Part shown: positions 1-42,355 of the stretch, piece after piece
Layout of the letters: the number at the start of each line of letters is the position of its first letter
How positions within the stretch are numbered: the stretch's first letter is position 1
Source: a virus
Reading direction: 5' to 3' (one strand)
IMG/VR virus record: IMGVR_UViG_3300044560_000017
DNA: 42,355 bases
Notes under the pieces: model-generated
Seen by the model: the letters and a program-made list of their open reading frames with translations, nothing else
Told to the model about the DNA's origin: nothing
Databases searched by the model: none
Made by a program: the position numbers and the translations under genes

Positions 1-100
1 ACAGATGACCTTGTTGTGGTATAGCCAGACTTATTGAAGTCGCACTGGCAAACGTGTCCCCTTGGATTTAGACCCCAGCTTGTCCCCTAGGGCTTTAAAA
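1..100. repeat. Terminal direct repeat, copy 1 (identical to 42256-42355); signature of a circular contig, unit 42255 bp
   Basis: Both window edges read base by base: acagatgaccttgttgtggtatagcc...cccctagggctttaaaa, 100/100 identical. Confidence 0.9.
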
Positions 101-122
101 ATCGCACCGGCCATGATATAAT
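94..122 (+). promoter_or_regulatory. Candidate sigma-A promoter TTTAAA(94-99)-17 nt-TGaTATAAT(114-122)
   Basis: Perfect -10 hexamer with extended TG and 17-nt spacer; consensus match only. Confidence 0.45.
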
Positions 123-128
123 AGTCAT

Positions 129-185
129 TAAACAACGATGACTTTTATGTGGCGCTCACCGATTCCCGTCGGTGGGTGTTTTTTT
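129..185 (+). ncRNA. Candidate ~55-60 nt small RNA, or attenuated leader of the par operon, ending at an intrinsic terminator
   Basis: Lies between the promoter above and the hairpin cgctcaccga/tcggtgggtg (153-178, 6-nt loop) followed by T7 (179-185). The 107-aa track ORF 138..461 crossing it is AT-rich, repeat-derived and has no SD. Confidence 0.4.
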
Positions 186-204
186 GTATTCACTTACAAG
201 TACA

Positions 205-233
205 ATTGTATTTCTCTCAATAAAAGAAATCAA
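205..233 (-). promoter_or_regulatory. Candidate leftward promoter TTGATT-17 nt-TACAAT, antisense to the candidate small RNA
   Basis: Plus-strand aatcaa at 228-233 and attgta at 205-210 with an exact 17-nt spacer; consensus match only. Confidence 0.35.
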
Positions 234-244
234 CACTTTTTTAA

Positions 245-390
245 AAAATGTATACATTTTTACATTAGTACAAATACTAATGTAAAAATTAGTATTTGTA
301 TACTCATTCAAAACGCCTCTATTGCAGTCTACATAGAGCTCATGTATACATTTTTACTTTTACACACTTGTATTTGTATACATGTACTAA
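245..390. promoter_or_regulatory. Repeat array upstream of parA: candidate centromere (parS-like) / par operator
   Basis: 15-mer tgtatacatttttac occurs twice (249-263, 343-357). 12-mer gtatttgtatac occurs twice (292-303, 370-381). Perfect 12-bp inverted repeat tacaaatactaa/ttagtatttgta (269-280/289-300). Four palindromic GTATAC cores start at 250, 298, 344 and 376. Confidence 0.5.
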
Positions 391-442
391 TTTTTGTGCT
401 ATGCTTTAAGAGCATTACACTACATATTTATGAGGTGATATT

Positions 443-1249
443 TTGGATAGCAAAGTCATAACATTTTCAAACTTTAAAGGCGGGACTGGCAAGACAACTA
501 ATAGTACAATGACTGGTATCGAGTTGGCACGTCGTGGGTATAAAACACTATTAATAGATTTGGATCCTCAAGCTAACGCCACTAATTTATATTTAAAAAC
601 TAAAAATAACGTCGGCGGTGAAGTAACTTCTTTTGATGAAACCTTGATGACCGCAATTAAAAACAAAAACCTCAAACCAGCTATCATCAACGTAATCCAA
701 AATTTAGATATTCTTCCATCCTCAGCTGACTTTTCTTTATATCCTAGATATATGGAGAATATAATTTCTGACTACACCGATCGTGTAAAATACTTGTCTA
801 CCTTAATAAATCCGTGGAAAGATGACTATGACTACTTGTTGGTAGACGTTCCACCTACAATTAGCCTAATCACAGATACCGCATTATATATGACAGACTA
901 CGCGATTGTCGTTCTTCAAACTCAGGAAAGATCGCTTCAGGGTGCCCAGGCATTCATCAAATACATGCAAGATCAAATTATCAATGAATTCCACGCTCCG
1001 ACATTAGATTTACTAGGAATATTGCCGGTTTTGCTGAAAAATGGTGCCCCTGTCGATAAGAGCACCTTAGCTAAAGCAATTGATATATTTGGTAAAGAAA
1101 ATATTTTTGGCATAACAATTAAAAATATGGAACGCTTAAAACGATATGATGTAACCGGGGTGACATTTAAAGATCAGTTTGATAAAGCAGTTCAAGACGT
1201 ATACTCCAACGTTACTGATGAAATATTTAGCAGAATGGCTGGTGAATAG
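443..1249 (+). CDS. parA: ParA-family partition ATPase (small type Ib-like, 268 aa)
   Basis: Deviant Walker A FKGGTGKTT near the N-terminus, LVDVPP Walker B-like motif. TTG start preceded by GAGGTG. Confidence 0.93.
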   Translation: MDSKVITFSNFKGGTGKTTNSTMTGIELARRGYKTLLIDLDPQANATNLYLKTKNNVGGEVTSFDETLMTAIKNKNLKPAIINVIQNLDILPSSADFSLYPRYMENIISDYTDRVKYLSTLINPWKDDYDYLLVDVPPTISLITDTALYMTDYAIVVLQTQERSLQGAQAFIKYMQDQIINEFHAPTLDLLGILPVLLKNGAPVDKSTLAKAIDIFGKENIFGITIKNMERLKRYDVTGVTFKDQFDKAVQDVYSNVTDEIFSRMAGE

Positions 1250-1251
1250 GA

Positions 1252-1620
1252 ATGAGCGGATTATTAAACAATCCCAATCTAAAAAAACAACCAAAGACGG
1301 ACCCACTTGATCGTGGACAAGATATCAAACCCAAAAACACCTTTACTACAGATGATCTTAAAAGTAATAATGGCAAACCATCAAAACCGGGAAAAAGCGT
1401 TGCAGATTCTGTTACTTTTTATGCTAACGTTAGAATCAACAACCATATTAAGAACAAAGCGGAAGCTTTATCTGGAATTGGTCTATATAAATCTCAAAAA
1501 GATGCCATTGATAACGCATTAGACTATCTCATTGATTCTTTAGACGCTGAAGACAAGCGAAAATTTACTTTTCAATTAGATATTCTGGAGAGTAGAGACG
1601 CCCGAACTAGGGGAAAATAA
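1252..1620 (+). CDS. Small partner of ParA; probable centromere-binding protein (ParB/ParG/omega-like, possible RHH)
   Basis: Starts 2 nt after the parA stop. 122 aa with a basic, disordered-looking N-terminus, then a strand-helix-helix-like VTFYANVRINNHIKNKAEALS...DAIDNALDYLI. Assignment rests on position and size. Confidence 0.55.
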   Translation: MSGLLNNPNLKKQPKTDPLDRGQDIKPKNTFTTDDLKSNNGKPSKPGKSVADSVTFYANVRINNHIKNKAEALSGIGLYKSQKDAIDNALDYLIDSLDAEDKRKFTFQLDILESRDARTRGK

Positions 1621-1771: not shown

Positions 1772-2044
1772 CTATTTACTTTTCAGTTCACGTACATCAC
1801 CTTCAACGTTGTCTAGGCGTTCGTTGATAACTTTATGCTCGCTTCTGCTAGTGATGAAATCTTCACGCAGCGTATTTTGCGAATCAAACAGCCGCTCAAT
1901 CCGCTGGCTGCTATCCTTCATGCTTTGAGCAATGTCTTGCAGCCGATCCGTAAAAGGCTTCATGACAACCATCAAAGCCGCATAGATACCCGCGACTACA
2001 GCCAAAGCCAAGGTGATTAATTCGATCCAACGATCAAAGTTCAT
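1772..2044 (-). CDS. Membrane-anchored coiled-coil protein, last gene of the lysis cassette (function unknown)
   Basis: N-terminal TM helix IELITLALAVVAGIYAALMVV followed by a charged helical tail. Its ATG overlaps the endolysin stop (TAATG). Confidence 0.6.
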   Translation of the reverse strand: MNFDRWIELITLALAVVAGIYAALMVVMKPFTDRLQDIAQSMKDSSQRIERLFDSQNTLREDFITSRSEHKVINERLDNVEGDVRELKSK

Positions 2045-2865
2045 TACTTACCACCCGACTTTCTGACCAGCTTCACGTAGTCCTTGTTAGCTGAGATGTA
2101 ACCAACAGCAGTCTTAATCCGGTACACCTTACCATGCTTAACAGCCTTACCATAAATGGTACTGCCCTTGGAGAAGTGAACACGGCGCTTATTAGCCTTG
2201 TCTAGGGCTGGCTTACCATACACGTTAACCTTACTGGCAATCACCTCGTACAGGCCGTTATCAGCCCAGTATGAGGCTTTCTTAGCAAACTTTTTAGATG
2301 TTTTCTTACCTGAAAGCTTGCCGTCAAAGTCATAACTGCAATCTACCCCGTGCCAGTTGTCGGTATATTGCCAAGCGTTGGCATTAGCTACCCCCGGTTG
2401 ACTGACACCATAAGCCGCAACCCAGATTGTCTTATTTACTAACTGGGACCGATTAATCCGACCAGCATTGAACCAGCTACCTGAGCCGTACGTAATCACA
2501 TTCTTGTACCCGTGACTAATCAGGTACCGAAGGAAGACATTAACCTGACTGGTCGTCTTCCAGGGTAAATCGGGTGCTTCAACATCGATGGCAAGTACCG
2601 TGGACTTATCTAATCCCATCCTCTTAACCCAACCCAGAAAGTATTGAGCTTCAGCCGTGCCTCGTCCATGGAAGAAGTGATAAACCCCGATAGTATCGAA
2701 TACTTTGAAGCCATTGGCAATCTGGTTACCAGCCTTGGGACTGAGATACCCGATGCCTTCGGTTAACTTAACCATAATACCTTTTGCTCCCCACTTCTTG
2801 AGCCGCTTCATGTAAGCTAAGGAATCAGCTTGGTACGAGGATATATCAACAATTTTCTTAGTCAT
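2044..2865 (-). CDS. Endolysin: GH25-type muramidase with a C-terminal SH3b-like wall-binding domain
   Basis: N-terminus IVDISSYQ...GIMVKLTEG...YHFFHG is typical of GH25 lysozymes. The C-terminal ~70 aa is SH3-like. Position is next to the holin. Confidence 0.9.
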   Translation of the reverse strand: MTKKIVDISSYQADSLAYMKRLKKWGAKGIMVKLTEGIGYLSPKAGNQIANGFKVFDTIGVYHFFHGRGTAEAQYFLGWVKRMGLDKSTVLAIDVEAPDLPWKTTSQVNVFLRYLISHGYKNVITYGSGSWFNAGRINRSQLVNKTIWVAAYGVSQPGVANANAWQYTDNWHGVDCSYDFDGKLSGKKTSKKFAKKASYWADNGLYEVIASKVNVYGKPALDKANKRRVHFSKGSTIYGKAVKHGKVYRIKTAVGYISANKDYVKLVRKSGGK

Positions 2866-3268
2866 TGATGTCAGTCCCTTCTGATGGGGTAATGACCTCC
2901 GTTGGCGCTGGGGTAACTACTGGAGCGTGATTATCCCCACCGGCAACCTTGTAAGCTTGGTAAGCAGCTTCCACCTTGGCCCCGGCCGTTTCCGTGGAAA
3001 TGCTCTTGCCGAGGTTCTGCATTGCGTTGACCACGTACTTGACGGCCTCAGCCTTGCGGTCGCTATTGGACAGCGGGGCCATGACTGCCATTTCTGCTAC
3101 GATCGCAGCCGCGTAGTTGTCCGCAATCTCAAGGTCGTGTTTGGTGCGCTCGTCCTTTTGCGTGGCGATTTTAGCTTTAATCAGTGGCCGTAGCAGTGCA
3201 TAAATGGCTGGCACTAAGGTCAGCACGAAAGTTAAAACGGAAGCAATATCAAAAGTACCTTCAATCAT
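2858..3268 (-). CDS. Holin (LL-H-like: one N-terminal TM helix plus a long soluble tail)
   Basis: MIEGTFDIASVLTFVLTLVPAIYALL TM segment. Overlaps the endolysin start. I prefer ATG 3268 (GAGAGGG SD) over the track start GTG 3277. Confidence 0.8.
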   Translation of the reverse strand: MIEGTFDIASVLTFVLTLVPAIYALLRPLIKAKIATQKDERTKHDLEIADNYAAAIVAEMAVMAPLSNSDRKAEAVKYVVNAMQNLGKSISTETAGAKVEAAYQAYKVAGGDNHAPVVTPAPTEVITPSEGTDIND

Positions 3269-3312
3269 AAATAACACCCTCTCAAAATTATTAGGTCATG
3301 CCGGCACCGGAA

Positions 3313-3462
3313 CTACTTTTGTCGGGATTGCAATACTGCGGTAAGAACGGCTTTGTCCTTTTCCAGTTCAGCAATGCGGTTAACTAAGATAGTGACGACC
3401 TGGTTAGGGTCGGCTTTAATCATGTCTGGTGCCGGTTGTTGCTCTTTAATTGGTTTCGTCAT
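3313..3462 (-). CDS. Small 49-aa ORF between the tail fibre gene and the holin (hypothetical)
   Basis: Hand-translated MTKPIKEQQPAPDMIKADPNQVVTILVNRIAELEKDKAVLTAVLQSRQK. AGGGGG SD lies 8 nt upstream. Below the ORF-track size cutoff. Confidence 0.4.
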   Translation of the reverse strand: MTKPIKEQQPAPDMIKADPNQVVTILVNRIAELEKDKAVLTAVLQSRQK

Positions 3463-6400
3463 TGCTTTTCACCCCCTTTAAGGTAGCCACGTCGTCACGC
3501 AACTTGCTAAGAACCGGGATAAGCAGAACCCACAGCTTTGAGTAGTCCACACCCTCAAGTTCACCGTCTAGTCCGTAGTACAGGAACTTGTCGAGGCCAA
3601 GCGCTTGCAAGTCCTCAGCGATAAGGCCGGGCTGCTCGGCGGTAGTAGCGTCGGGGTTCGGCTCTTTGTTCTTGCTGGCCGAGTCCACAATGTCTTGAAT
3701 TGAGGGCTTGTCAAACCAGTATTTTGGCTTGGCTTTAAGTAGCGCAGCAGATAGCGTGTCAAGGTCGTACATGTCATGAATGTCCTGCTTGTACTTGCTG
3801 GCAGAGGCAACTCGGGCAAGTCCGCCGTGAACGGTAACGTAAACGTTGGCCCCGTGAGAGTTCGTGACGTTGTAAATTGAGTTTGAGCGAACCATACTGG
3901 TTCCCGTCCCAGACTCAAGGTGCAAGTCGTCGGTGGCCCCGTCTGGCTGTACGAGCTTGGTGTGCAGTCGAGTTGGTGCGTAGACGTTTGGTGCAGTGAG
4001 TCCAACCGAGTGGCTTAGCCCGTTACGGTCAACCGTAAACACGTCGGTTCCATTAGAGTTACCGAGTGCAATTTTTAGCCCGTTCATGTAGGTGCGGCCC
4101 ACTAAGTTGCTGCGGGCGCTGTCCTGCATTTCATTCTTGATCCCGCCGGCGTTGATAATGGTCGTGGTGTAGTTGGTTCCAGTCCCATCAACCATGCTGC
4201 CAGCAGTGTTGTAACTAGCCCACGAATTTTTAGAGGCGTCGTAGTATTGCGTTTGGCCGCTAACGACAAGCTCACCTTGAGCCATTGCGACAGTCCCTTG
4301 TGCAGCGATTGGCTGGTAGAAACGTGGGTCTTGAGTAATCGAGTAAGACGACCACACAACCCCACCGTCACCGAGGGAAATTAGCGGCGCGTCAATCGAG
4401 GCCCCGGAAATGTTGGCACCAACCAACTGCTTTTGGAACGGGATAGACGACCACTTGCTTGAAAGGTATTGCTGAACGTCGTCCACGTTTTCAGCTTTTA
4501 AGGAAATCTGCGAGTCATTGACCGCGTTGCCTGTTGAACCCGCAACAGTGACGGTCTTAGTTTCGGTGTGGTATGCAGCCGGGTCACTTCCGGCGTTGGT
4601 ATCAGTACCGTAGCGCGTCCCACTGGTCAAGTCCTTAATTGGAACGTAAGCGATCCCGCCATTGTAAGCCGTGTAGTAGCACCACAGAATACCGGACTCG
4701 ATAACCTTGCCGTTGTAGGTGGCTGACAGTCCGCTATAGGTATAGGCCCGGGTCGCCGCAGTCATTGACGGCGATTGCTTAATAGGGTGCTGTCCCGACC
4801 AAGTGAACCGGCCAGAGGCAGCGACTTTGGTGCCGTCGTTAGAAACTTGCACCGTAACAGTTTTGGTAGTGCTGCCCGTCCCACCGTTCGTGCTGTCGTC
4901 GTGATAGTTCAGGTATTGCTCGGTGTCGGTCACCTTGAACCACAATGCCCCGTCGTCGGCCCCCGTTGGCTGGTTAGGTTGAAAGTAAACATTGTCAGCA
5001 AAGTAGGTCTTTGAAACGTTACCCACTTCGGTGCTGGCTTTCGTTGCCTCGTCGTGTGCGGTGTTTGCGGTGCTCTGTGCATTATCGGCAGCAATCTTGG
5101 CGGCGTTGGCGGTGGTGTTGGCAGTATTGGCCGTGCTCTTTGCAGCCGTGGCGTTCGTGTTGGCAGTGTTAGCCGTGTCCTGCGCGTTGCCAGCGGTTGT
5201 CTGTGCAGTGTCGGCAGTAGTTTGTGCAGAACCAGCTACCGTCTGTGCTTTCTCTGCCGTTGCTTGAGCACTGCTGGCAACAGTTTTGGCGTTGGTGGCT
5301 GTGGTTTCCGCACCTTTTGCAGTAGTTTGAGCAGTGTCAGCAGCAGTCTTGGCAGCCCCAGCAGTGGTGGTGGCCGAGTCCGCTTTTTTAATAGCGTCGG
5401 TCGCGTTTTTGGTGGCGTTCTCTGCTACGGTATGTGCAGAGTCGGCCGTATTGCTTGCTGAAATTGCGTCAGAATGCGCCTGTGCAACGTCTTTTTTTAG
5501 CTGTGTTAGGTCAGAGTCGACATTCAATTTCTTAGGAGTGATGGTCGAGTATTCGCCCAGAGTCAGCTCGTGCACTGAGGGGTCGGACTTGGATTTTGAG
5601 ACTTTGATAACGCGGGCGTCTACGATCATAGCCGGGTTTAAATCAAAGTCAGCAACGCGAAAGTCGTCACCGATACCGCCGCTAATATCTGACCGAATTT
5701 GAACAGTGTAGTTGTATCGAGGGTGGTTGTACATTTTGAGTTGTTTCTTGCCCCACGCAAGCAGACCGGCAGAGTTCTTGATGGTCTCAGAGGTTATGGT
5801 TCCCTCTAACCATGTTGACCCTCGGCCCTTGATGTCGTGGTTGTACTTGGCGTTGGCGTCGGGATCAGTTAAGAATGCAACACCGTTGTTGGCGTCCTCG
5901 ATGGTGGCCCCGTCGTTCCCCAACACGTACAGCTTAGTAACGAGAGCGTCGTCAACCAGTTTGCGGTCAACACCCACCAAGTCGTTGCGGTAGTCCAACC
6001 GGGTTCGTTTAGTGCTGCCGATATGGTCAGACACTTCAACAATCTGGTCGGTAACGTCGCCCACGCTGTCGAGATTTACGTAGCAGTCAACGTCTAGGTC
6101 ATAGTCCGCAGCGAGTTGCTGCAAGTAAGACTGAGCCGAGCTGCTGCCGTCGTACTCTTCCTTGAGAGTCATAATTGACTTTGAATTATACTCAAGCCGC
6201 CACCCGGATTTGGCCAGCAGGTTGGTGAATGCAGTTTCGGCATTTACCGAGTTGCTGCTGAACGCCGTCGGGATAGTCCGGGCAAGTTTCCACTCACAGA
6301 GGTTCTGAGCGTCAAAGCTAAATGACTGGTCAGTTTCTTTGCTGCTCTGGTCAATATTCATCATGCGCATAACATAATGCTTTTGGTTTTCAGAGTCGTA

Positions 6401-6679
6401 GTAGAGCAAGTGGTTGCCAGGTACGATGTTCTGAGCGTCCGGGGCATTACTTGGCACGGTGATACCAGTAATGGTGTGGTCGTAGGTCTTTTTATTCGCA
6501 GCCAAGTTGATGGTGTTGAACGTGTCTTTGAGGTCTTCCCAAGCAAAGGCACTGTCGTCCTCGGCAATGCTTTGGTCGATGGTATCGCCCCAAAATGGGG
6601 TTCCCGCTCGTACATGGTTACTCAGTAACCCAATACGCCGCAGTTGATTATCTAAAATAATATATTCGTCGTCGCGCAT
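3446..6679 (-). CDS. Tail-associated lysin-position protein / receptor-binding fibre (Tal-like N-terminus, Ala/Thr repeat stalk, SH3b-like insert, C-terminal S74 intramolecular-chaperone domain)
   Basis: Position directly after Dit. C-terminal SASKYKQDI...GLIAEDLQALGLDKFLYYG...VDYSKLWVLLIPVLSKL matches the auto-cleaving chaperone pattern of phage fibres. Confidence 0.85.
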   Translation of the reverse strand: MRDDEYIILDNQLRRIGLLSNHVRAGTPFWGDTIDQSIAEDDSAFAWEDLKDTFNTINLAANKKTYDHTITGITVPSNAPDAQNIVPGNHLLYYDSENQKHYVMRMMNIDQSSKETDQSFSFDAQNLCEWKLARTIPTAFSSNSVNAETAFTNLLAKSGWRLEYNSKSIMTLKEEYDGSSSAQSYLQQLAADYDLDVDCYVNLDSVGDVTDQIVEVSDHIGSTKRTRLDYRNDLVGVDRKLVDDALVTKLYVLGNDGATIEDANNGVAFLTDPDANAKYNHDIKGRGSTWLEGTITSETIKNSAGLLAWGKKQLKMYNHPRYNYTVQIRSDISGGIGDDFRVADFDLNPAMIVDARVIKVSKSKSDPSVHELTLGEYSTITPKKLNVDSDLTQLKKDVAQAHSDAISASNTADSAHTVAENATKNATDAIKKADSATTTAGAAKTAADTAQTTAKGAETTATNAKTVASSAQATAEKAQTVAGSAQTTADTAQTTAGNAQDTANTANTNATAAKSTANTANTTANAAKIAADNAQSTANTAHDEATKASTEVGNVSKTYFADNVYFQPNQPTGADDGALWFKVTDTEQYLNYHDDSTNGGTGSTTKTVTVQVSNDGTKVAASGRFTWSGQHPIKQSPSMTAATRAYTYSGLSATYNGKVIESGILWCYYTAYNGGIAYVPIKDLTSGTRYGTDTNAGSDPAAYHTETKTVTVAGSTGNAVNDSQISLKAENVDDVQQYLSSKWSSIPFQKQLVGANISGASIDAPLISLGDGGVVWSSYSITQDPRFYQPIAAQGTVAMAQGELVVSGQTQYYDASKNSWASYNTAGSMVDGTGTNYTTTIINAGGIKNEMQDSARSNLVGRTYMNGLKIALGNSNGTDVFTVDRNGLSHSVGLTAPNVYAPTRLHTKLVQPDGATDDLHLESGTGTSMVRSNSIYNVTNSHGANVYVTVHGGLARVASASKYKQDIHDMYDLDTLSAALLKAKPKYWFDKPSIQDIVDSASKNKEPNPDATTAEQPGLIAEDLQALGLDKFLYYGLDGELEGVDYSKLWVLLIPVLSKLRDDVATLKGVKSNDETN

Positions 6680-6694
6680 AATCTCGCAACCTTT

Positions 6695-8815
6695 CTATTG
6701 GATTGCCGGCCGAACACTCACGGAAATATCAACGTCGGGGCTTGAGGGATCAAAGGCAAGGGTGTTGTCCTTGCCACCGTCTAGCATGAAAAACGTCGAG
6801 TCCGGTGTAATTAGATAGTCGGCCGGTTCGTTATTCAGGAACACATGCCCGGTGTCGCAGTTAATATGCAGCTCGTCACCGGCATGGAAAACCTGTTGGT
6901 CAAAGTCGGACAAGTCACTATTTCCGGTAGCGCTTTGGTCGGGAATGGTGGTGCTGTCCCCAGAACTTGCAGCAGTGTCGGGCTTGACCGGGTTAACCGG
7001 GTTCGAGTCGGTGCCGTAAATTGCTTTGCCGGCAGTGTCATAGTAAGCCGCATAACGTCGGCCACCGGAGTAACTAATGTAACTCAGCCAGTAGTAGCCG
7101 TTTTGGAACACCTTGCGGTCATAGTAAACGGATTGCCCGGCGGCGTACGTAGCGGCGACTGAGCCACTAGTGTCTGGGCTATTGCGGACGTTGACGTTGG
7201 CGTTAAACTTGAACGTCCCCTTGGCTTCAATTGAGTAGCCTTCTGGGGTCGAACCTGGTGCCGGTGGAATGCCGTTAGAACTGGCCGTCCCTGAGCCACC
7301 TGTTGTGGTTGCCCCAGTAGTTTTAGCCGGTGCCGGTGCGTCTAGCAGCTCTTCAACCTTGTAATCGGTAATCGTCTGGAAGACGTTTTTGTAGGCAACC
7401 TTGGCCTTATCTTCGGTGATGTCGTGCTTGGCCGTGAAGAACGCAATGCTTCCCAGGTCAAAGTCGAACTTGCAATCAGTGTCAACGAACGTGACCCGAT
7501 CCTTGCCGAAATGAACCCCACTGTCCATGTAAGTCGCCGTTTTTGGGTCCCATTGGTCAATGGCATAGCCCCAGTTGATCGCGGTGGTGCCGTCGGCTTG
7601 CTTGACGTACTGCTTAACGATACTGAACTGGCCGAAGAAGTCAGAGAACGCGTCAACCATCTGGTTGTTGTCCAGGTACTTGGTGGCTTTCTTATACTTG
7701 ACCGCGACCGTTTCGTGATTACTGCTGTGAGCCAGACTCATGGCAGAACCATAGTACAGGTTCTTGTAGTCCACACCCTCAGTACCATCAGCGAAATTAC
7801 TGCCCAGTTGAACGTAGGCCTGCGGGTAACCACCACCCTTAACGTCCTTGAGGCCAATTCGCCCGCACGTCCGTTGCTTGGTGTCCAGAATGTAAACCTC
7901 AACCTTAGCCATAGCCCGGTAGTTGTGCGCACCGCTGTACTTACTGTGGTGTAGTCGGACTGATAGTTTCCAGTTCTTTGGCGAGTACGGCAATGCTTGG
8001 TGAAGCTCACCGGGGCCGTACCATTGTTCGTGGGTATTGACCTTACCAAAGTTGTAAGTTCCGTCAGAGTTCTTGGCTACCCGCAGAGAGGCGTCGGTTG
8101 AGGCCATTGCCCCGTCAATGTCGAGGTTGATGGTGCTAACCGGGTTCGCGTTCTCTTTAATCGCAGTCCACGTTGAGAGCGTAGTGCAGGGGTCGTGAAC
8201 TAGCATTCGGGTCTTGTCGTCGCTGCTCGTCCCGTCGCTGCCAGAATCAACGTCGGCGTCGCCACCTAGTTGGATAAACTCAGTGGATTGCTCGCCCGTG
8301 TCTTTAAGCACGGTGAACGTCTTCACGTCCTTGTTGAACGTAGCAACAATGATCGCGCCAACGGGCGTGTTTCCCTTAACAGGTAGCACCGCCGTGGTCG
8401 AGGCGTCGGCAACGTCCCAGTCTTGCTGCTCAAGGAACCCGCGCGGGTCTGAGCAAACAAAGGTGATAGTTGACGACCAATCAGAAACACCGTCGTTTAG
8501 CGGCTCGGGGTCACTAATCTGCGTAATGTGGGCGTAGAACGTATAGCCCGGCAGGTCGTCGAACGTCAACGGGTACTCAGTACCACGTTCCTCTTGCGGG
8601 TCAATGAATGCAGCAGAAAGCTCACGAATTTTTTGCTCGGCCAGTTGACCACCAGCCACCGAGTACAGTTGCGAATACGGCGTTAGGTAGTAGACCGGAA
8701 CGTTGATGGTCAACGCCCCATAAGACGACCCCTGATACACGGGGCCGTAACGGGCAGGAATGACCTGCGAACTTTCTGTGATTGCAGGGGTGACCGGCAA
8801 TAGTACCTTGCCCAT
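6695..8815 (-). CDS. Distal tail protein (Dit), enlarged form with inserted/C-terminal binding domains including an SH3b-like module
   Basis: Position between TMP and Tal. 706 aa, much longer than a minimal Dit. ANVNVRNSPDTSGSVAATYAAGQSVYYDRKVFQNGYYWLSYISYSGGRRY is SH3b-like. Confidence 0.78.
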   Translation of the reverse strand: MGKVLLPVTPAITESSQVIPARYGPVYQGSSYGALTINVPVYYLTPYSQLYSVAGGQLAEQKIRELSAAFIDPQEERGTEYPLTFDDLPGYTFYAHITQISDPEPLNDGVSDWSSTITFVCSDPRGFLEQQDWDVADASTTAVLPVKGNTPVGAIIVATFNKDVKTFTVLKDTGEQSTEFIQLGGDADVDSGSDGTSSDDKTRMLVHDPCTTLSTWTAIKENANPVSTINLDIDGAMASTDASLRVAKNSDGTYNFGKVNTHEQWYGPGELHQALPYSPKNWKLSVRLHHSKYSGAHNYRAMAKVEVYILDTKQRTCGRIGLKDVKGGGYPQAYVQLGSNFADGTEGVDYKNLYYGSAMSLAHSSNHETVAVKYKKATKYLDNNQMVDAFSDFFGQFSIVKQYVKQADGTTAINWGYAIDQWDPKTATYMDSGVHFGKDRVTFVDTDCKFDFDLGSIAFFTAKHDITEDKAKVAYKNVFQTITDYKVEELLDAPAPAKTTGATTTGGSGTASSNGIPPAPGSTPEGYSIEAKGTFKFNANVNVRNSPDTSGSVAATYAAGQSVYYDRKVFQNGYYWLSYISYSGGRRYAAYYDTAGKAIYGTDSNPVNPVKPDTAASSGDSTTIPDQSATGNSDLSDFDQQVFHAGDELHINCDTGHVFLNNEPADYLITPDSTFFMLDGGKDNTLAFDPSSPDVDISVSVRPAIQ

Positions 8816-32800: not shown

Positions 32801-32802
32801 GC

Positions 32803-34861: not shown

Positions 34862-34891
34862 GTCGTTCCTCCTTTCTTGATTACAAATATA

Positions 34892-34978: not shown

Positions 34979-35011
34979 TTAGTCACCGTTATAGATAGGA
35001 AGTGATTAACT

Positions 35012-35728
35012 ATGAAACCAGAAAACGAAATTTCAAGTCAAATAAAAGTTCTTCGATCTAAAATGGGCTGGTCTCAATCTCAACTAGCTGATAAATTAGG
35101 AGTATCTAAACAATCAGTTTCAAATTGGGAAACAAACCTAAAAACGCCCCGAATGGGAGCGCTTCAAAAAATGTCAGATTTATTTGGCGTCAGCATTGGC
35201 CGGATAACTGACGGAGATAGGTTTGAAAATAATCTAATTCAGAAAACCGCTCAATTAATGCAAAGATTGCCTTATAGTAAGCAGCAAGAAGTATTTGATT
35301 TTGCCAAGAGTCGATTGACACTAAATGTTAATTCTAACGTTATCAAATTTCCTAAAGACGATGACACCCTCGAAATTACCGCCAGTGGTGTCCTCTCTGC
35401 TGGTGTGGGTGAGTTCCTTGATGATTCTACTAAGCCATTCACTGTAACCGTGCATAAGCCTATTCCTAGCGATTATGACTATGCCTTCCAGATCAACGGC
35501 CACTCAATGGAGCCTGTGTACCAGGATAAGCAAGTTGTCTTCGTCAAGAAGGAAGACGATTACCGTGATGGTCAGATCATCGCCGCGGTTATGGATGGGT
35601 GCGCGTATCTGAAAAAGCTGTCAGTAGTTGATGGCGAGGCTACGCTGGTATCACTCAACCCACAATATCCTAATATCAAAGTTGATAAGGAATCTGGCGT
35701 CAAAGTATTAGGCGTTGTGTTCTCATAA
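35012..35728 (+). CDS. CI-like repressor (XRE HTH + S24 LexA-like autopeptidase)
   Basis: N-terminal HTH MGWSQSQLADKLGVSKQSVSNWE. C-terminal GHSMEP (Ser) and AYLKKL (Lys) dyad. Confidence 0.93.
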   Translation: MKPENEISSQIKVLRSKMGWSQSQLADKLGVSKQSVSNWETNLKTPRMGALQKMSDLFGVSIGRITDGDRFENNLIQKTAQLMQRLPYSKQQEVFDFAKSRLTLNVNSNVIKFPKDDDTLEITASGVLSAGVGEFLDDSTKPFTVTVHKPIPSDYDYAFQINGHSMEPVYQDKQVVFVKKEDDYRDGQIIAAVMDGCAYLKKLSVVDGEATLVSLNPQYPNIKVDKESGVKVLGVVFS

Positions 35729-35854
35729 GTCCCCTACATGGGGACTTCTCTTAACACTTCAAAAGAACATACGTTTGATTAACCGGGTGGTTGATCATAG
35801 GTCCGAGTCCTATGTAATCAGTTGATTCACGACTTAAATATGGAGGTTGCTATT

Positions 35855-36166
35855 ATGACAACGTTTGAATTAGAAGAATACTTGGCAGCACATAGCCAGA
35901 TTGTCGACAATTTTCGAGATAAGTATGCTGCGTTCCTAAACGAACAAAACGCAGACCGCCCCACCAATAAAAAGTGGAGTAGTCTGCGCATTGATAACGT
36001 AACTGATAGTGGTGCTAACCGGTTCATTGGCAATATCCAAGCCAAATTGAGTTCAGCCATGAAGCCTCGCCAGAGAAAATCTTATGATGGCTGGGTTGAT
36101 TATATGGAACGCAATGAAACCATCGGTAGCTTGGAAGAGTCCCTAGTTGATCTGGATTTTGTTTAA
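35855..36166 (+). CDS. Hypothetical protein on the lysogeny side (103 aa)
   Basis: Trimmed to ATG 35855 (GGAGG SD). Same strand as cI. No recognisable motif. Confidence 0.5.
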   Translation: MTTFELEEYLAAHSQIVDNFRDKYAAFLNEQNADRPTNKKWSSLRIDNVTDSGANRFIGNIQAKLSSAMKPRQRKSYDGWVDYMERNETIGSLEESLVDLDFV

Positions 36167-36265
36167 AAGGATACTTTATAATATGCAAACACCATGGATC
36201 GCACACTGTTCATCCAGATACTTACTGCCGTATTACGTATACAAAATTATATAATCAAGTTGAAT

Positions 36266-36300
36266 ATAAAAAAAGCCTGAATCTAAAAATTCAGGCTTTC
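36266..36300. terminator. Bidirectional intrinsic terminator
   Basis: A7-gcctgaat-ctaaaa-attcaggc-TTT. Confidence 0.7.
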
Positions 36301-36323
36301 TTACTATAAATTAATATTTACTA

Positions 36324-37775
36324 TTATTGAAAGGCACTAACGCTACCAGTGTTTTGGATAGTAGAAGCACTACCTTTATCTTCCTTAGCAGTGTTGTAGA
36401 AGGCATATGCAATACCATTAGTAGTGTAAGTACCTGCAACACCAGAAGTTAACGTGTAGGTGGTGTGATAAAGTTGTGGTGAGAAAGTTCCCCCCGCATA
36501 TTGCTTAGTATGACCATCAGCATTAACAGCCTTAGCAGAGTTAGGAGCAACCACATTATGATTAGCATCCTTAGCATAAGGAACTGAGGTCAAAGTGTTG
36601 GCCTTGTTAATAGTCAAGAAGTTTTGAACGTCAGCAGCGGTGTAGTTAGCACCATTAGCGCCAGAGAAGGCAGCAGTTAACTTTGGGGTCGTTACTTTGA
36701 AAGGCAATTTACCAGAAGAGCTCAACTTAACTGGGGCGTTAACACCGTCTTGGTAGTATGCAGCAATGCTTTGAACAGCTTGTGCACCCTTAGTAACCGT
36801 TAAGCTAACTGTATCACCGGTCTTTGCAGCATACAAAGCAGCTTTGTTAGCAGCATTGCCTTCTGAGTAAGTATAACCAGTACCCTTTAATAGTGGATCA
36901 CTCCAGGCCTTAGTTGCACTTTTAACCGCATCATAACCAACAGCAGTACCCTTAGCATTTGCCTTAGCAGTACCAATAGCAGTGTTGTCAGCGTTGTTTG
37001 CAGTCAGCTTAGGTAAAGTAGCGGACTTTAAAATCGTACCATTAGGAGCAACAAAGTTTACCTTAACATCAGTTGCTTGGTTGTAAATAGCGGAAGCATC
37101 AGTCGTAACGGCCTTGCTGTAGATCCAACCATTAACCGTAGGGTTTTGTTGGTCTTCAACGTAGTAGTATAATGAGCCTTCACGAGTCTTAGTTTCAGCC
37201 TTAGTGACCTTTAAAGTGTCACCGGCGAAAGGAGTGGTGTTCTTAACAACTTTAGAAGCACCAGACTTGTATTGAGTGTACTTAGGCGCAGTCCAGGTAA
37301 CATTCTTAGTACCAGGATTAGTGAAAGTAACAGTCTTACCAATCATGCTGTCAGTCGTGTTAGCAGTAGTCGTTTCAGCGGCCTTGATCCCGCCGCCGAA
37401 CGTACCGTTAACCTTACCACCGTAAACATAACCACGGTACTTTTGGTCCATGGTTACAACACGGTAGTATACGGAACCACGGTTAGTAATCTTAACACCG
37501 TAAGCACGGAAGTAGTTAGCGGACTTCTTGGAAGCCGCTAATTCTTGAACCTTGGCCTTAGAAGCAACGATTTTAGCCCCTTTAACCGTGCCTGGCTTGG
37601 TGTAGATGGCGTTAGTTCCCGTCAACGAAACGTTTTGCGCCTTGGCACCTAAAGCTGCCTTAGACGAAATCGTGACATGACTTGCAGCTTGCGCTGGCGT
37701 TGCGAAGTTTGCTGCTGCCCCTAAGCTCATTGCAGCTAAACCGACGTACAACGTCTTTTTCAAACTAGATTGCAT
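36324..37775 (-). CDS. Secreted S-layer-protein-like paralog 1 (divergent C-terminal half)
   Basis: Signal peptide MQSSLKKTLYVGLAAMSLGAAANFATPAQA. Conserved block [22 protein letters not shown]...[33 protein letters not shown]. No Cys. From memory this resembles L. brevis Slp proteins. Confidence 0.82.
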   Translation of the reverse strand: MQSSLKKTLYVGLAAMSLGAAANFATPAQAASHVTISSKAALGAKAQNVSLTGTNAIYTKPGTVKGAKIVASKAKVQELAASKKSANYFRAYGVKITNRGSVYYRVVTMDQKYRGYVYGGKVNGTFGGGIKAAETTTANTTDSMIGKTVTFTNPGTKNVTWTAPKYTQYKSGASKVVKNTTPFAGDTLKVTKAETKTREGSLYYYVEDQQNPTVNGWIYSKAVTTDASAIYNQATDVKVNFVAPNGTILKSATLPKLTANNADNTAIGTAKANAKGTAVGYDAVKSATKAWSDPLLKGTGYTYSEGNAANKAALYAAKTGDTVSLTVTKGAQAVQSIAAYYQDGVNAPVKLSSSGKLPFKVTTPKLTAAFSGANGANYTAADVQNFLTINKANTLTSVPYAKDANHNVVAPNSAKAVNADGHTKQYAGGTFSPQLYHTTYTLTSGVAGTYTTNGIAYAFYNTAKEDKGSASTIQNTGSVSAFQ

Positions 37776-37815
37776 CATGTTCTCCCCTAAAAAATAGATT
37801 TATGGTACGTGCTTA

Positions 37816-37842
37816 AGTATAGCAAGCCCCCCACCATTGCAA
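37816..37842 (-). promoter_or_regulatory. Candidate promoter of paralog 1 (TTGCAA-15-TGcTATACT)
   Basis: Extended -10 motif cttgctatact, shared with the paralog 2 upstream region (39394-39404). Confidence 0.35.
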
Positions 37843-37885
37843 AATACTTTTCTGCAATCGGGGTCAAATTTGGTATAAATATGAA

Positions 37886-37925
37886 AATAAAAAGGACTCC
37901 CACCAGTCTCATAATGGGAATCCTT
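37886..37925 (-). terminator. Intrinsic terminator after paralog 2
   Basis: Minus strand ggattccca-loop-tgggagtcc followed by TTTTTATTTT. Confidence 0.7.
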
Positions 37926-37959
37926 CATTAAAGGTTAAAGTTTAGAGGAATAACGCAAA

Positions 37960-39351
37960 TTACGCAATCCAGCTGGTATCAGAGGACGTCACTGTCGCGG
38001 CCCCTTCTGTCAGCGTTGCACTGAAGCTAGCCTTCAACGTATCACCGTAATTAGCTAGACGATTATCACTTGCAAAGTTAGTCGGCTCATAACTAAAGAC
38101 GTAGTGGAATGGTGTCCCATCCGCAGCATAGTAGGTCTTGTCCCCAGAGACACTAGTTGCCGTAATTGCACTAGAGATGGTGCCGAGATTAGTTGCGCCA
38201 ATTTGAGTCCCCTTATCACCGGTCAAGGCTTTGACACCAGTTTCAGATAAAGTTGCTGATAAGTCACTCGCGTAAAGCTTATCTCCAGCGGACAACAAGC
38301 CAGCTACTGGGTTAGTAGCCGTTGAAGCCGTATTCGTGACGGTATCAGCCACCATTTGAATCTTAGACGTTGCTGCTGCTTCAACATTAACGTAAACGGT
38401 ATTCCCGTATTGTGCGGCACTCGTGTCCACCGTTCCATTCGTTGTATAACCACTTGGAACCGAGTTATTAACAAAATCAGATAATGTGACCCCGGCAGCA
38501 TTTTTATCTCCAGCGTTAACCGATGATCCAGCTGTGGTTCCGCTATTTGCCGTAATCCAAGTTGAACTACCAACCGTGGTACCACTATCGTCACGGTAAA
38601 CGACCTTCACACTATTATCGGCCGTTGCCGCCGCATCAGACATGGTTAAGGATAAACCACCCAAGTTTTGCGTTGCCGTATTAGCCACATAGCCTTGACC
38701 AGCAAAAATCCAACCTGATACAGCGGAGTTATTTTCATCCGTTACGTGATAGTACAATGACCCTTCACGTGTCTTCGTCACAGCCTGATCAACTTTAAAG
38801 GTATCCGTTGACTTAGCCCCATACAGACTAACTTTCTTAGCCTTATATTGGGTGTATTGTGGTGCTGTCCACAAAGTATTCTTCGTAACATCCTTAAGGT
38901 AATATCCAGTTGTTCGAGCAGGCATCGGCGCCGTTGTTGTGGTATTAGCAGCTTTAATCCCACCAGCAAAGGCCGTATCGGACTTACCACCATAAATGTA
39001 GCCCCGATACTTTCCGTTCATCGTGACAACGCGGTAGTAAACTGAACCGCGGTTCGTGGTCCGAACACCATAAGCCCGAAAGTAATCCGCAGACTTCTTA
39101 GAGGTCGCTAACGTCTTTAACGTCGTCTTAGAAGCTACGACCTTAGCCCCCTTGACCGTTCCCGGTTTCGTGTACAAGGCATTCGTACCGGTTGCTTCCA
39201 CGTTTCGCTTAGTGGCATCCGTTGTTAAAGTCTTATACGCACCCATTGTGGCATAGGATTTAGCTGAAGCAGTAGATGATACCGCGGCAACGGCACCAAA
39301 ACTCAAAGCCGCTAATCCCAAATAAAGTGTCTTTTTCAAACTCGCTTGCAT
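37960..39351 (-). CDS. Secreted S-layer-protein-like paralog 2
   Basis: Trimmed to ATG 39351: [30 protein letters not shown] signal peptide. Same conserved N-terminal block. C-terminal half colinear with paralog 3. Confidence 0.82.
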
Positions 39352-39475
39352 AAAACGAACAACTCCCTTGTCTATTATTTGTAACTGTTTCCAAGTATAG
39401 CAAGGCAACAATATTTCAGATAGTTTTAGCAGTTTGAAGGTTTGTTTTCCTAATATTGGGTTAAAGTTGACAAAA

Positions 39476-39511
39476 CAAAAAGGACTCCAACCGAAGTCGG
39501 AATCCTTTTTT
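39476..39511 (-). terminator. Intrinsic terminator after paralog 3
   Basis: Minus strand ggattccgac-ttcg-gttggagtcc followed by TTTTTGTTTTG. Confidence 0.75.
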
Positions 39512-39544
39512 ATTTACTGTTAATGTTTAATTTAAAGGTTTAAA

Positions 39545-40921
39545 TTAAGCAATCCAGTTACTGTTTGAAGAAGTGTTCTTAGGAGCACCCTTAGTCAAAA
39601 CAGCCTTGAAGCTGGCAGTCAAGTTGTCACCGTAAGTGGCAAGACGGTTGTCAGTCGTGAAGTTATTTGATTCGAAGGTAAATACGTAGTGGTAAGCATC
39701 ACCATTAGCTGCGTAGTAGGTCTTCGTACCAGTGATAGCAGCAGTACCGAATTCATCCTTGATAGCAATCAAATTAGTTTTACCAATTTGAGTGCCCTTA
39801 GTACCAGTTAAGGCCTTAACACCAGTAGCACTTAAGGTAGCAGTTAAATCAGCTGCAGATAACTTAGCGCCCTTAGCTAACGGATTAGCAACAGTAGCCT
39901 TGGCTTCAACATTATCAGCAACTAATTGTACCTTAGACGTAGCAGCAGCCGTTACGTCAACGTAAACCGTGTTGCCGTAAGTAGCAGCAGCGGTGTTAGC
40001 AGTACCAGTCGTGGTGTAACCAGATGGTAAGGAGTTAGTAACGAAGTCAGCTAACTTAGTACCAGCAGCGTTGGTAGCATCAGTACCAACCGTAGCACCG
40101 GCCTTAGTACCAGCAGCGTTAGTGATCCAAGTAGCAGTAGCTACTTGAGCACCGTTAGCACGGTAAACAACCTTAACACTGTTGTCGTTAGTAGCAGCGG
40201 CATCAGACATCGTTAAGGAAAGACCACCAAGGTCTTGGCTCGTAGCGTTAGCAACGTAGCCCTTACCAGCGTAAATCCAGCCAGAAATAGCAGAATTGTT
40301 TACGTCGGTAACGTGGTAGTATAATGAACCTTCCTTGGTCTTAGTAGCAGCTTGGTCTACCTTGAAAGTATCGGTAGCCTTAGCACCGTACATGTTAACC
40401 TTCTTGGCCTTGTATTGGGTGTACTTAGGTGCGTTCCAAAGCGTGTGGCTGGAAACGTCCTTCAAGTAGTAACCAGTAGTCCGAGTTGGGTTAGTAGCGG
40501 TCTTAGTCGTTTCAGCAGAAGTAATCCCGCCGCCGAACGTACCGTTAACCTTACCACCGTAAACATAACCACGGTACTTTTGGTCCATGGTTACAACACG
40601 GTAGTATACGGAACCACGGTTAGTGGTCTTAACACCGTAAGCACGGAAGTAGTCAGCAGACTTCTTAGAAGAAGCTAACTTAGCCATCGTTGCCTTAGAA
40701 GCAACTACCTTAGCACCCTTAACAGTACCAGGCTTAGTGTAAAGTGCGTTAGTACCAGTAGCTTCTACGTTACGCTTAGTAGCGTCAGTAGTCAGCTTGC
40801 TGTAAGCACCGGCAGTTGCATAGCTCTTAGCACTTGCAGTAGTGGTAGTAACAGCTGAAAGACCAGCTAAACCTAACACTGCAGCGCCTAAATAAATGGA
40901 CTTTGCGAATGATGAACGCAT
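39545..40921 (-). CDS. Secreted S-layer-protein-like paralog 3
   Basis: Signal peptide [31 protein letters not shown], conserved N-terminal block, strong AGGAGG SD. Confidence 0.85.
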
Positions 40922-40996
40922 AGATGAAAACCTCCTAATAATTTCTTTTTAGCAAAAACATTATGTAAATGTCCACAATCATTCTCGCTAACGGCA

Positions 40997-41025
40997 ATTA
41001 TAGCATACGTTACCAACTATGCCAA
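40997..41025 (-). promoter_or_regulatory. Candidate promoter of paralog 3 (TTGGCA-17-TATAAT)
   Basis: Exact 17-nt spacer, perfect -10, ~70-nt leader to the start codon. Confidence 0.5.
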
Positions 41026-41077
41026 AAGAAAACTTTAAAAAATTCACGAAAAAGTCATAATCACTAAAATAGTGCAC

Positions 41078-41108
41078 AAAAAAACCCTTCAACAGGTCAG
41101 CGGAAGGG
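41078..41108 (-). terminator. Candidate intrinsic terminator for leftward transcripts upstream of the paralog 3 promoter
   Basis: Minus strand cccttc-12 nt-gaaggg followed by T7. Confidence 0.45.
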
Positions 41109-41588
41109 AAGAATCATGGATTCATCTATGCAGGTACAATTATATCTTATATGTAGCAAAAAAGCAATGACGATGAAATGTTTGTAACAAAAAAGGACGC
41201 CCTGCTTGAAGGAGCGCCCAATCTTCAAAGAAGGAAAAAACCAACTCTAAAGAAATCTCTTAATGCAGACTAACATCTATTTAATATAATGTCAATAAGA
41301 ATAGAAAGAAGAACGTTTCCATTAAGTTACTAACAGTAGTAGAGAACAAGCAAACCTAATAACACTTACCATCATTTCATTGCTTAACATGCTATGGCTG
41401 ATAATACAATTAGCTATACCAATTTTTACTTTACATAAGGCGGCTTATCCCAAGTAACCCACATTCACCGCGGTACTTCCACATTCCGTTATTTTTTGAT
41501 TGTGAACTTGTCCAAAAAAGAAGTGGTATAGGTCGCAGATTGGCTTTAATTGGGGAAAGGAAGTTTGTGAAATTTACTGGTATTACTC

Positions 41589-41921
41589 CTAGACCGTTCC
41601 CTTAAATTCAACTGTCTCATTCTTTGTATTAACCAAAAATTTGCCAACACTTCCCCGATACTTCACTGATACTTTAAAGGAATACTTGTAATTTACCCGA
41701 GTGTATCGAATACTACTAATTCTTCCCTGATACCCTTGACTACGCAAAACTCTCTTCACTTGGTTCCTTTGTCGCTCAGTAATTCTTGCAGAACTCCGAT
41801 AGATTGTCTTCTTAACGATCACATCTGGATTCAATGGAACAATGTAATCCTTACATTCCAACAATTCCACCAACTTTCTTTTTTTCTTTGGAATTTGACT
41901 TGACGGGTTACGGTTTTCCAT
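41589..41921 (-). CDS. Orphan basic 110-aa ORF (hypothetical; may not be expressed)
   Basis: Open frame in an AT-rich region, KKKRKL tract. No SD (upstream is CTCCCTC). No recognisable motif. Confidence 0.3.
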   Translation of the reverse strand: MENRNPSSQIPKKKRKLVELLECKDYIVPLNPDVIVKKTIYRSSARITERQRNQVKRVLRSQGYQGRISSIRYTRVNYKYSFKVSVKYRGSVGKFLVNTKNETVEFKGTV

Positions 41922-42119
41922 TCAGTTTAGAGGGAGTGACGTTTTGAGCGCAGAATTGTTCCCTGGAATCAGCTATTTGGAATAACTGAACCAGAGTACA
42001 ATTCTACTACTAAAAGTTTCCCCTTAGTTCGTCGGTCGTTAACGCCCGTCGCTTGTCTGTACAATTGCGGTATTGCTACCACCACTCATTATAAACCTAC
42101 GTTTTCGGTTTAGCCTACT

Positions 42120-42141
42120 AAAAAACGCCCTAGCAGGCGTT
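42120..42141 (-). terminator. Weak candidate terminator for the leftward transcript that starts near 198
   Basis: Minus strand aacgcc-tgctag-ggcgtt running into T6; short stem. Confidence 0.3.
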
Positions 42142-42255
42142 GATGATACGTATTTATTTTTGTTCGATCACCAACTAATCAGTGGCACCAAGCCGAAGCT
42201 TCGTTTTACCACCCGCGCCGTTAATGGCCGCGCTCACCATTCACCACCCAGCCGT

Positions 42256-42355
42256 ACAGATGACCTTGTTGTGGTATAGCCAGACTTATTGAAGTCGCAC
42301 TGGCAAACGTGTCCCCTTGGATTTAGACCCCAGCTTGTCCCCTAGGGCTTTAAAA
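42256..42355. repeat. Terminal direct repeat, copy 2 (identical to 1-100)
   Basis: See copy 1. Confidence 0.9.

Follow-up and report, generated by a model that had tools for sequence, protein, structure and literature searches.

Layout of a circular phage genome with a partition operon

The IMG/VR virus record IMGVR_UViG_3300044560_000017 is a stretch of 42,355 nucleotides (referred to below as the window, meaning the whole stretch at this length), in which a temperate phage gene set is joined to a ParA/DUF5388 partition operon and to an adjoining noncoding element that we call the core. Positions 1-100 are exactly identical to positions 42256-42355, and the starting 30-mer occurs at only two sites in the window, 1 and 42256, which leaves a non-redundant unit of 42,255 bp with 46.8% G+C. 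The contig Ga0455819_00241 (43,657 bp), assembled from another metagenome sample of the Joint Genome Institute (JGI), is linearised elsewhere, within the tail/lysis region, and matches the window from 35000 through 42255/1 to 3300 at 100.0% identity in a single 10,556-bp alignment. A 550-nt query spanning the junction matched 354 PLSDB plasmids with a query coverage of at least 80%, and all of the full-length matches among those listed (49 of 49) were in a single piece. The 100-nt repeat is therefore an overlap from assembling a circle and neither a phage terminal repeat nor an att site: the noncoding element around the junction is found unbroken in plasmids and in the differently cut contig, so the ends are not attL and attR. 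In this respect the first-pass annotation, which had been made from the sequence alone and had closed the window on itself as a 42,255-bp circle, was right, and the attL/attR alternative that it had raised failed.

The circle is filled by 47 genes, and the gaps between them reach about 0.8 kb at most. Gene assignments were taken from Pfam, NCBIfam and PHROGs. The phage core functions, i.e. packaging, capsid, tail and lysis, are all present by Pfam, and the Pfam and PHROGs matches likewise agree with the earlier description of complete packaging, head, tail, lysis, replication and CI/Cro/Rha modules. By its predicted gene content, the window is a complete temperate siphovirus gene set.

The partition operon is shared with ordinary plasmids

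The region downstream of cI had been described in the first-pass annotation as a small open reading frame (ORF), three surface-protein genes, an AT-rich tract and a parA gene (KGGTGKT) with a small partner and an upstream repeat array. The small ORF, the three surface-protein genes, the noncoding tract, parA and its partner are all found there. The repeat array is not: what precedes parA are four dispersed palindromic copies of TGTATAC(A) and other short repeats, which are not in tandem. Nor is the noncoding tract simply AT-rich, as much of it belongs to a highly conserved plasmid element with sharp boundaries.

The parA gene (443-1249, plus strand) starts with TTG, is preceded by a GAGGTG ribosome-binding site, and encodes a 268-amino-acid ATPase with a deviant Walker A motif (KGGTGKT, residues 12-18). 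The Pfam match to AAA_31 (9.5e-39) spans the protein from residue 3, NCBIfam matches it best to PrgP, an enterococcal partition ATPase (188 bits), and the protein falls into the PHROG ParA-like family. Beginning 3 nt past the parA stop codon, a second gene (1252-1620, plus strand) encodes a DUF5388 protein of 122 amino acids (Pfam, 4.2e-27), which in related plasmids always follows the ATPase and is presumed to be the centromere-binding adaptor. The repeat scan placed a repeat region upstream of parA at 244-395. Its TGTATAC(A) palindromes are located at 249, 297, 343 and 375, so that a stretch of 134 bp (249-382) contains four of the window's seven sites; inverted and direct repeats of 15-28 nt are present in addition. 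This region is a likely candidate for the centromere or operator bound by the DUF5388 protein. The upstream repeats differ between par alleles. Small size, a deviant Walker A motif and the lack of an N-terminal DNA-binding domain in ParA, together with a small partner encoded directly downstream that is unrelated to type Ia ParB and predicted to bind DNA, characterize the operon as type Ib-like.

Over the segment comprising 41410-42255 and 1-1698, ordinary plasmids of Lactiplantibacillus, Pediococcus, Loigolactobacillus and Levilactobacillus match the window at 97-99% identity; the ParA/DUF5388 operon and the core upstream of it agree with bona fide plasmids at this level. For the phage genes of the window, in contrast, the identity to the nearest relatives is only about 90%. 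This difference points to a recent capture of the par/core module from co-resident plasmids, or an exchange with them.

A conserved noncoding core lies upstream of parA

The core amounts to about 550 bp (41891-42255 plus 1-185). It was delimited by PLSDB matches and per-column conservation on its left side (running in the window to 42355) and by per-column conservation on its right side (1-185), and its edges are sharp. Across 60 distinct sequences the per-column conservation is at least 0.85 and reaches about 0.9 or more over most of the length; most of these copies are 86-98% conserved, and six are divergent at 55-70%. The core is present in 430 PLSDB plasmids and annotated in none of them. 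A 30-nt motif from it was found at 74 loci in about 60 Lactobacillaceae species, nearly all on contigs shorter than 63 kb.

Within the core, an ultra-conserved block at 31-90 holds two TGTCCCC(T)NGG repeats, and a terminator-like hairpin lies at 42141-42124 on the minus strand. The promoter/terminator scan identified a promoter on the plus strand at 94-122 (TTTAAA-17-TGATATAAT) and, downstream of it, a candidate RNA that is about 60 nt long and would form two hairpins (123-187, plus strand; first stem-loop 123-143, terminator 151-180 and then seven T residues). Of its 34 sequence variants, 31 retain the 5' hairpin with differing stem sequences and variable loops, and the terminator contains one pair with a compensatory change from GC to AU. 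A divergent class of cores has another promoter and another hairpin RNA at the same place. When the core alignment was folded, the minus strand reached -82 kcal/mol versus -35 kcal/mol for the plus strand. In the minus-strand fold, 80% of the changed pair cells stay canonical versus 47-58% in shifted controls, with few independent lineages contributing, and this pairing signal is suggestive only. Rfam searches of the window at gathering and at permissive thresholds returned matches to tRNAs only and none that was credible in the core. An Fst-like type I toxin-antitoxin system was considered as well and rejected, as the core contains no small hydrophobic ORF.

Downstream of the core, at a distance of 366-655 nt, 67 of 68 loci have the start of a ParA-like gene. 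These ParA proteins, which adjoin near-identical cores and are of both KGGVGKT and KGGTGKT types, range from 33 to 100% identity to the ParA of the window, which argues that core and par cassette assort separately. The par operon thus appears to be a swappable cassette, consistent with diversification of incompatibility. On the other side of the core, the basic 110-amino-acid protein encoded by orf110 (41589-41921, minus strand; no family matched) accompanies it in about 32 of the 74 loci. In the Levilactobacillus brevis plasmid CP079701.1 an unrelated small ORF annotated as BRCT-domain protein (36824-37102) takes the spot of orf110.

The core is also found on plasmids devoid of a phage. pWCFS103, pRH45II and pLP-ZJ102 carry cores 95-97% identical to that of the window, and in each case the genes for a ParA-like ATPase and its small DUF5388 partner come next. 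Unlike the window, these plasmids bear arsenic resistance, hop resistance, exopolysaccharide (EPS) or conjugation genes as cargo. No Rep initiator is annotated or recognisable in these three plasmids, all of which contain core and par. As a rule that the core marks Rep-less plasmids, this is weakened by a Pediococcus (P. siamensis) plasmid with a core that carries a Rep_3 gene as well. These observations leave room for the tentative idea that the core is a previously undescribed Rep-independent origin or copy-control element; we regard this as possible, with the odds rather against it. One conceivable model would be a ColE1-like theta replicon that has no plasmid-encoded initiator and is controlled by an antisense RNA. 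The alternative replicon of the plasmid state is the phage DnaD/DnaC module. An identity of the core with the p256 origin could not be shown, as the p256miniori primer is absent from the window (allowing up to 3 mismatches) and from 97 loci; p256 serves as a precedent only for a very small theta origin in lactobacilli (PMC3526553). MOB-suite assigns the phage-plasmids without exception to rep_cluster_1675 despite their differing parA alleles, and core-sharing ordinary plasmids to rep_cluster_731. This typing could not be mapped to a feature and was not used as evidence for a replicon.

If the core does act in replication, temperate phages of Levilactobacillus would have become plasmids by capturing core and par cassette, the variable loop of the small RNA and the par allele might jointly set incompatibility, and several such replicons, phage-plasmids included, could share one cell. 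Provided that it replicates autonomously, the core might also be useful as a small vector origin for lactobacilli.

Integration functions are not found

None of the 47 called genes showed a recombinase domain in Pfam, with 42 of them covered by our own scan and five by the precomputed annotation of JGI; the latter five are small head-tail/connector ORFs that belong to phage structural families or to no family. In the other frames, 51 stop-to-stop ORFs of at least 90 amino acids gave zero Pfam matches. Integrase, resolvase, DDE integrase and protelomerase were accordingly found neither in the called genes nor in these alternative-frame ORFs. A tblastn search of the window with the tyrosine integrase of phage Sha1 and two serine resolvases of pWCFS103 gave a best E value of 0.38, and the same three probes returned nothing at 1e-3 in four relatives, with positive controls scoring fully. 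The integration module is thus absent by Pfam, by the other-frame ORFs and by tblastn. The earlier statement that none of the translated ORFs resembles a tyrosine or serine recombinase is upheld by these searches, and the profile search over called genes and other-frame ORFs also yielded no recombinase that had been overlooked.

The window does contain a transposon that had escaped the first-pass annotation, which named no such element. This insertion sequence (IS) of the IS200/IS605 type (about 26512-28516) is located between the early and late phage genes and consists of tnpA (26577-27023, minus strand; Y1 HUH transposase, Pfam Y1_Tnp) and tnpB (27107-28360, plus strand; RuvC-like, Pfam OrfB_IS605 and Cas12f-like TNB). 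It is 99.4% identical to copies on plasmids of Secundilactobacillus paracollinoides and occupies a different site in CP079701.1. IS200/IS605 is recognised as an independent transposon that is neither a phage integrase nor part of the phage-plasmid machinery.

Relatives occur as circular plasmids and as an isolated phage

PLSDB contains about ten circular plasmids of 38-44 kb from complete Levilactobacillus genomes with a backbone identity of 88-91% to the window. Three of these records (CP079701.1, NZ_CP059605.1 and NZ_CP076340.1) were inspected in full and about seven more were assessed by DNA match. The three inspected plasmids have a common layout of cI, S-layer gene, a noncoding core region of about 1.8 kb, ParA-like ATPase, small partner and lysis genes; each is a whole phage genome deposited as circular, and none of the three carries an integrase annotation. 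The backbone without an integrase is common to at least these three records and probably to all of the roughly ten. In NZ_CP059605.1, NZ_CP076340.1 and the roughly seven others, the early, lysogeny, par and lysis regions match at 88-91%. The closest in its virion genes is CP079701.1 (plasmid unnamed2 of L. brevis M10, 38.6 kb), which resembles the window in morphogenesis, lysis, replication and switch genes (91.7% identity over 86% of window positions 1-25000 and 90.8% over 43% of the rest), possesses the noncoding core and has no integrase. It is unlike the window in that it carries an unrelated parA allele (KGGVGKT) with different upstream repeats and one S-layer-like gene instead of three.

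The same backbone is present in phage Lb (NC_047983, Heilongjiangvirus Lb; host L. brevis ATCC 367, from pickle), which was deposited as an isolated phage in a circular record. Phage Lb shares the layout of the plasmids and is about 89-90% identical to the window at the nucleotide level in the lysis, core, lysogeny and replication regions; a ParA-like protein is annotated and an integrase is not. Its par allele differs, however, and its virion module is wholly different, with baseplate genes of a myovirus-like type. The alignment to phage Lb covers about 6% of window positions 1-25000 and 38% of 25001-42355, at about 90% identity. The genus guideline of the International Committee on Taxonomy of Viruses asks for a nucleotide identity of roughly 70% or higher across the genome, and by this usual nucleotide criterion the window would fall outside the genus Heilongjiangvirus. 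NZ_CP076340.1 carries a phage-Lb-like, myovirus-like virion module, and NZ_CP059605.1 a different module of siphovirus type. One backbone for lysogeny, replication, par and lysis is hence seen with three unrelated virion modules: the siphovirus type of the window, the siphovirus type of L. suantsaii and the myovirus-like type of phage Lb and pBR431. This pattern indicates a wholesale exchange of morphogenesis modules among these phage-plasmids.

An integrative counterpart is phage Sha1 (NC_019489), which has the order RinA-HNH-TerS-TerL-portal-ClpP-capsid, lysis, repressor/Cro/Rha and replication in common with the window. Amino acid identity is 50.5% for TerL, and nucleotide identity is 82% for one early gene. 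The position between lysis genes and repressor, occupied by a tyrosine integrase in Sha1, holds in the window the DUF5388 gene, parA, the noncoding stretch, orf110, the three S-layer paralogues and orf114 instead. A replacement of the integration cassette by a partition cassette is described for the cluster A actinophages (Pfeifer et al. 2021, PMC7969092). The same study delineated the pLP39 community, which consists of 17 predicted phage-plasmids, 14 of them from lactobacilli, is related to Sha1 and includes none that has been shown experimentally. The window fits the description of this group as lactobacillus plasmids of about 40 kb with phage gene sets, membership there being defined by clustering on weighted gene repertoire relatedness (wGRR). 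The phage-plasmid class in lactobacilli had therefore already been predicted in 2021, and the window is a sound, not an unprecedented, example of it.

More distantly, P1, N15, SSU5 and the cluster A mycobacteriophages with parABS are temperate, partitioned extrachromosomal replicons, as proposed here for the window. P1 differs in having type Ia ParAB, a RepA replicon and Cre/lox, while N15 is linear and uses a protelomerase. The window, compared with these two, has a small type Ib-like ParA with a DUF5388 protein, and no plasmid Rep or resolvase was found in it.

Further relatives were found in metagenomes and among genome representatives. An identical TerL occurs on 19 contigs and an identical Slp3 on 10, none of them longer than 50 kb. 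IMG/VR also holds relatives whose TerL is 95-97% identical, one of them on a 43-kb contig. Six GTDB-representative contigs of 39-46 kb from other Levilactobacillus and Secundilactobacillus species carry the core and a ParA gene; five of the six also have phage lysis genes (p90 and/or GH25), and Slp genes occur on some. Judged by this content, these contigs are probably further phage-plasmids of the same kind.

Finally, pRH45II (21785-23326) and pLP-ZJ102 (15745-17124) contain a remnant of holin and GH25 lysin genes that is 88% identical to those of the window and adjoins the core/par module. The remnants suggest that related phage-plasmids decay into, or recombine with, plain plasmids.

The element probably persists as a low-copy plasmid

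So far, the window presents itself as a closed circle with full phage modules, a plasmid-type partition module and no integration module. We consider it very probable that it represents a complete circular temperate siphovirus of Levilactobacillus (brevis group) that persists as a low-copy circular plasmid and is not integrated. This reading gains its support from the integrase-less relatives, which are closed plasmids in isolates, and from phage Lb, which shares the backbone. An extrachromosomal, actively partitioned lysogen in a lactobacillus had been proposed in the first-pass annotation already, and the circular Levilactobacillus plasmids and phage Lb now speak for that proposal.

According to this model, the cos ends would be joined after injection and CI, with its helix-turn-helix (HTH) and S24 peptidase domains, would silence the lytic genes. 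The circle would then be copied at low copy number from either the phage DnaD/DnaC module or the plasmid-derived core, and the DUF5388 protein may bind the TGTATAC repeats while ParA segregates the copies. The three S-layer paralogues, having promoters of their own, would probably be produced by the prophage and alter the cell surface. Upon DNA damage, autocleavage of CI would lead to RinA-driven late transcription, packaging by HNH/TerS/TerL and lysis by holin and GH25 endolysin.

Several observations weigh against such a lifestyle. Neither a plasmid-type Rep initiator nor a multimer-resolution recombinase was found among the genes of the window, and the insertion of IS200/IS605 in the early-late region could impair the phage. 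The metagenome contigs belong to a single JGI sample series, so that their independence is limited. Moreover, we infer the plasmid state and the inducibility of this particular element from its relatives.

The best-surviving alternative is a defective plasmid-borne prophage, i.e. a plasmid that acquired a phage genome, replicates only as a plasmid and releases no infectious particles. The IS200/IS605 insertion at about 26.5-28.5 kb would fit this scenario, as would pRH45II and pLP-ZJ102, in which only the holin-lysin remnant beside par/core is left and which document that decay to plain plasmids occurs. However, the structural, packaging, lysis, replication and switch genes are all full length with normal domain matches, the IS sits between genes, near-identical copies exist in several samples, and phage Lb, which has this backbone, is a phage isolate. 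We therefore regard a defective prophage as unlikely. Considerably less probable still is an integrative prophage whose integration function was overlooked, be it a novel recombinase, the host XerCD or the TnpA of the IS, with the circle being the excised or virion form. Several small ORFs without an assigned function (orf110, orf114 and others) and the presence of a Y1 transposase might be quoted in its favour. Yet, a recombinase domain was encountered in no frame, the unannotated gaps are all below 0.8 kb, and the Y1 TnpA belongs to a discrete IS with near-identical plasmid copies and another location in CP079701.1. In addition, the relatives are closed plasmids in complete genomes, and an upper limit of 50 kb applies to all contigs with identical TerL or Slp3. 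An assembly chimera of a phage contig and a plasmid fragment, for which the near identity of par/core to abundant co-resident plasmids that can mislead assemblers might be invoked, is the least credible of all: the joins lysis-DUF5388 and core-Slp-cI are reproduced at 100% in the differently linearised Ga0455819_00241 and stand in the same order in phage Lb and the three inspected isolate plasmids, so that the par and S-layer connections to phage genes, whose authenticity had been raised as a concern, recur in separate contigs and in complete isolate genomes.

The preferred reading, a phage that is kept as a plasmid, bears on how these bacteria have been surveyed. The comparative-genomics paper on L. 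brevis scanned only chromosomes for prophages (PMC6533708), and the L. brevis prophage survey dealt with chromosomal attL/attR integration sites and reported no plasmid-borne prophage (PMC6805780). As these surveys covered chromosomes and integration sites, temperate phages of the present kind have been filed as 'plasmids', and such elements are unrecognised in this prophage literature. The hosts are beer-spoilage and vegetable-fermentation lactobacilli, i.e. bacteria associated with beer and pickle, and recognising phage-plasmids in them alters how their plasmid content, phage sensitivity and horizontal transfer are to be read. Linking the isolated phage Lb to plasmid records may provide a tractable phage-plasmid model for Gram-positive bacteria. 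The shared par/core modules and the lysis-gene remnants on hop-resistance and EPS plasmids further speak of two-way traffic between phage-plasmids and ordinary plasmids.

Three S-layer paralogues form the cargo

Between the switch and the core region, three genes of the S-layer family are arranged in tandem on the minus strand: slp1 (36324-37778), slp2 (37960-39351/39411) and slp3 (39545-40921). The encoded paralogues have 458-484 amino acids, and each possesses a signal peptide and is preceded by a strong extended -10 promoter of its own. The paralogues have in common an N-terminal part of about 220 amino acids (58% identity) and diverge in their C-termini; Slp2 and Slp3 are 68% identical overall. 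Their closest homologues (60-80% identity) are encoded on Levilactobacillus contigs of 40-46 kb, which by their size are probably other phage-plasmids. The Slp proteins of the window are 44-56% identical to chromosomal proteins that bear the name S-layer protein or SlpC, and the homologues in plasmids carry the annotation 'S-layer protein'. A lysogenic conversion of the cell surface by these proteins is a reasonable inference, and phage-borne S-layer genes might offer a route to surface remodelling or superinfection exclusion.

Switch, replication and virion genes

The genetic switch (33841-36166; Pfam and PHROGs) consists of Rha (33841-34608) and a Cro-like HTH protein (34592-34903) on the minus strand and of the CI repressor with HTH_3 and S24 peptidase domains (35012-35728) on the plus strand, followed on the same strand by orf114 (35822-36166). 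The replication and recombination genes (28962-32800, minus strand; Pfam, NCBIfam and PHROGs) encode a DnaC/IstB-like loader, a DnaD-like initiator (29734-30519, minus strand), an HNHc nuclease, SSB, ERF and Gp157.

All head, tail and lysis genes described in the following are located on the minus strand and were assigned by Pfam. The head and packaging module (17207-23477) comprises an HK97-type capsid protein, a ClpP protease, the portal, TerL, a TerS of the P27 family and an HNH endonuclease. The nearest cultured phages, Sha1, BK5-T and bIL286, have TerL proteins with no more than 50-53% identity to that of the window. BK5-T is a cos phage, and this together with the HNH-TerS-TerL arrangement suggests that packaging is probably cos-type. 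The tail genes and head-tail connectors (3446-17192; here also by the precomputed Pfam annotation of JGI) include Tal with SH3_5 domains (3446-6679), Dit (6695-8815), the tape measure protein with an M23 domain (8884-14394), the tail tube protein (15107-15766) and a tail assembly chaperone. A tail sheath protein was not among the family matches of the window's genes, from which the phage is classified as siphovirus-type. The lysis cassette (1772-3277) is composed of a holin (2858-3277), a GH25 endolysin with DUF5776 (2044-2865) and a 90-amino-acid membrane protein (1772-2044).

In bins of 1 kb, the G+C content is mosaic, with 50-55% in the virion genes, 41-44% in the early and lysogeny genes and 36-39% in the par/core region, consistent with modules of different origin. 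The GC skew profile mainly reflects gene orientation and module mosaicism and gave no indication of an origin.

Between the packaging genes and the IS, and again on the minus strand, lie a RinA-family late activator (25280-25705), a tRNA-Met with CAT anticodon (25064-25137) and a D12 adenine methyltransferase gene (23563-24999; Pfam/NCBIfam). Next to the tRNA gene, Rfam gave a second, shorter tRNA-like match (25148-25205) that was not called by ARAGORN. The methyltransferase gene contains an in-frame 9-bp repeat in 10.3 copies (CAGTTGTTG) at 23839-23931, which encodes a Q/L-rich repeat, and the predicted size of the enzyme varies from 320 to 478 amino acids between otherwise identical metagenome contigs.

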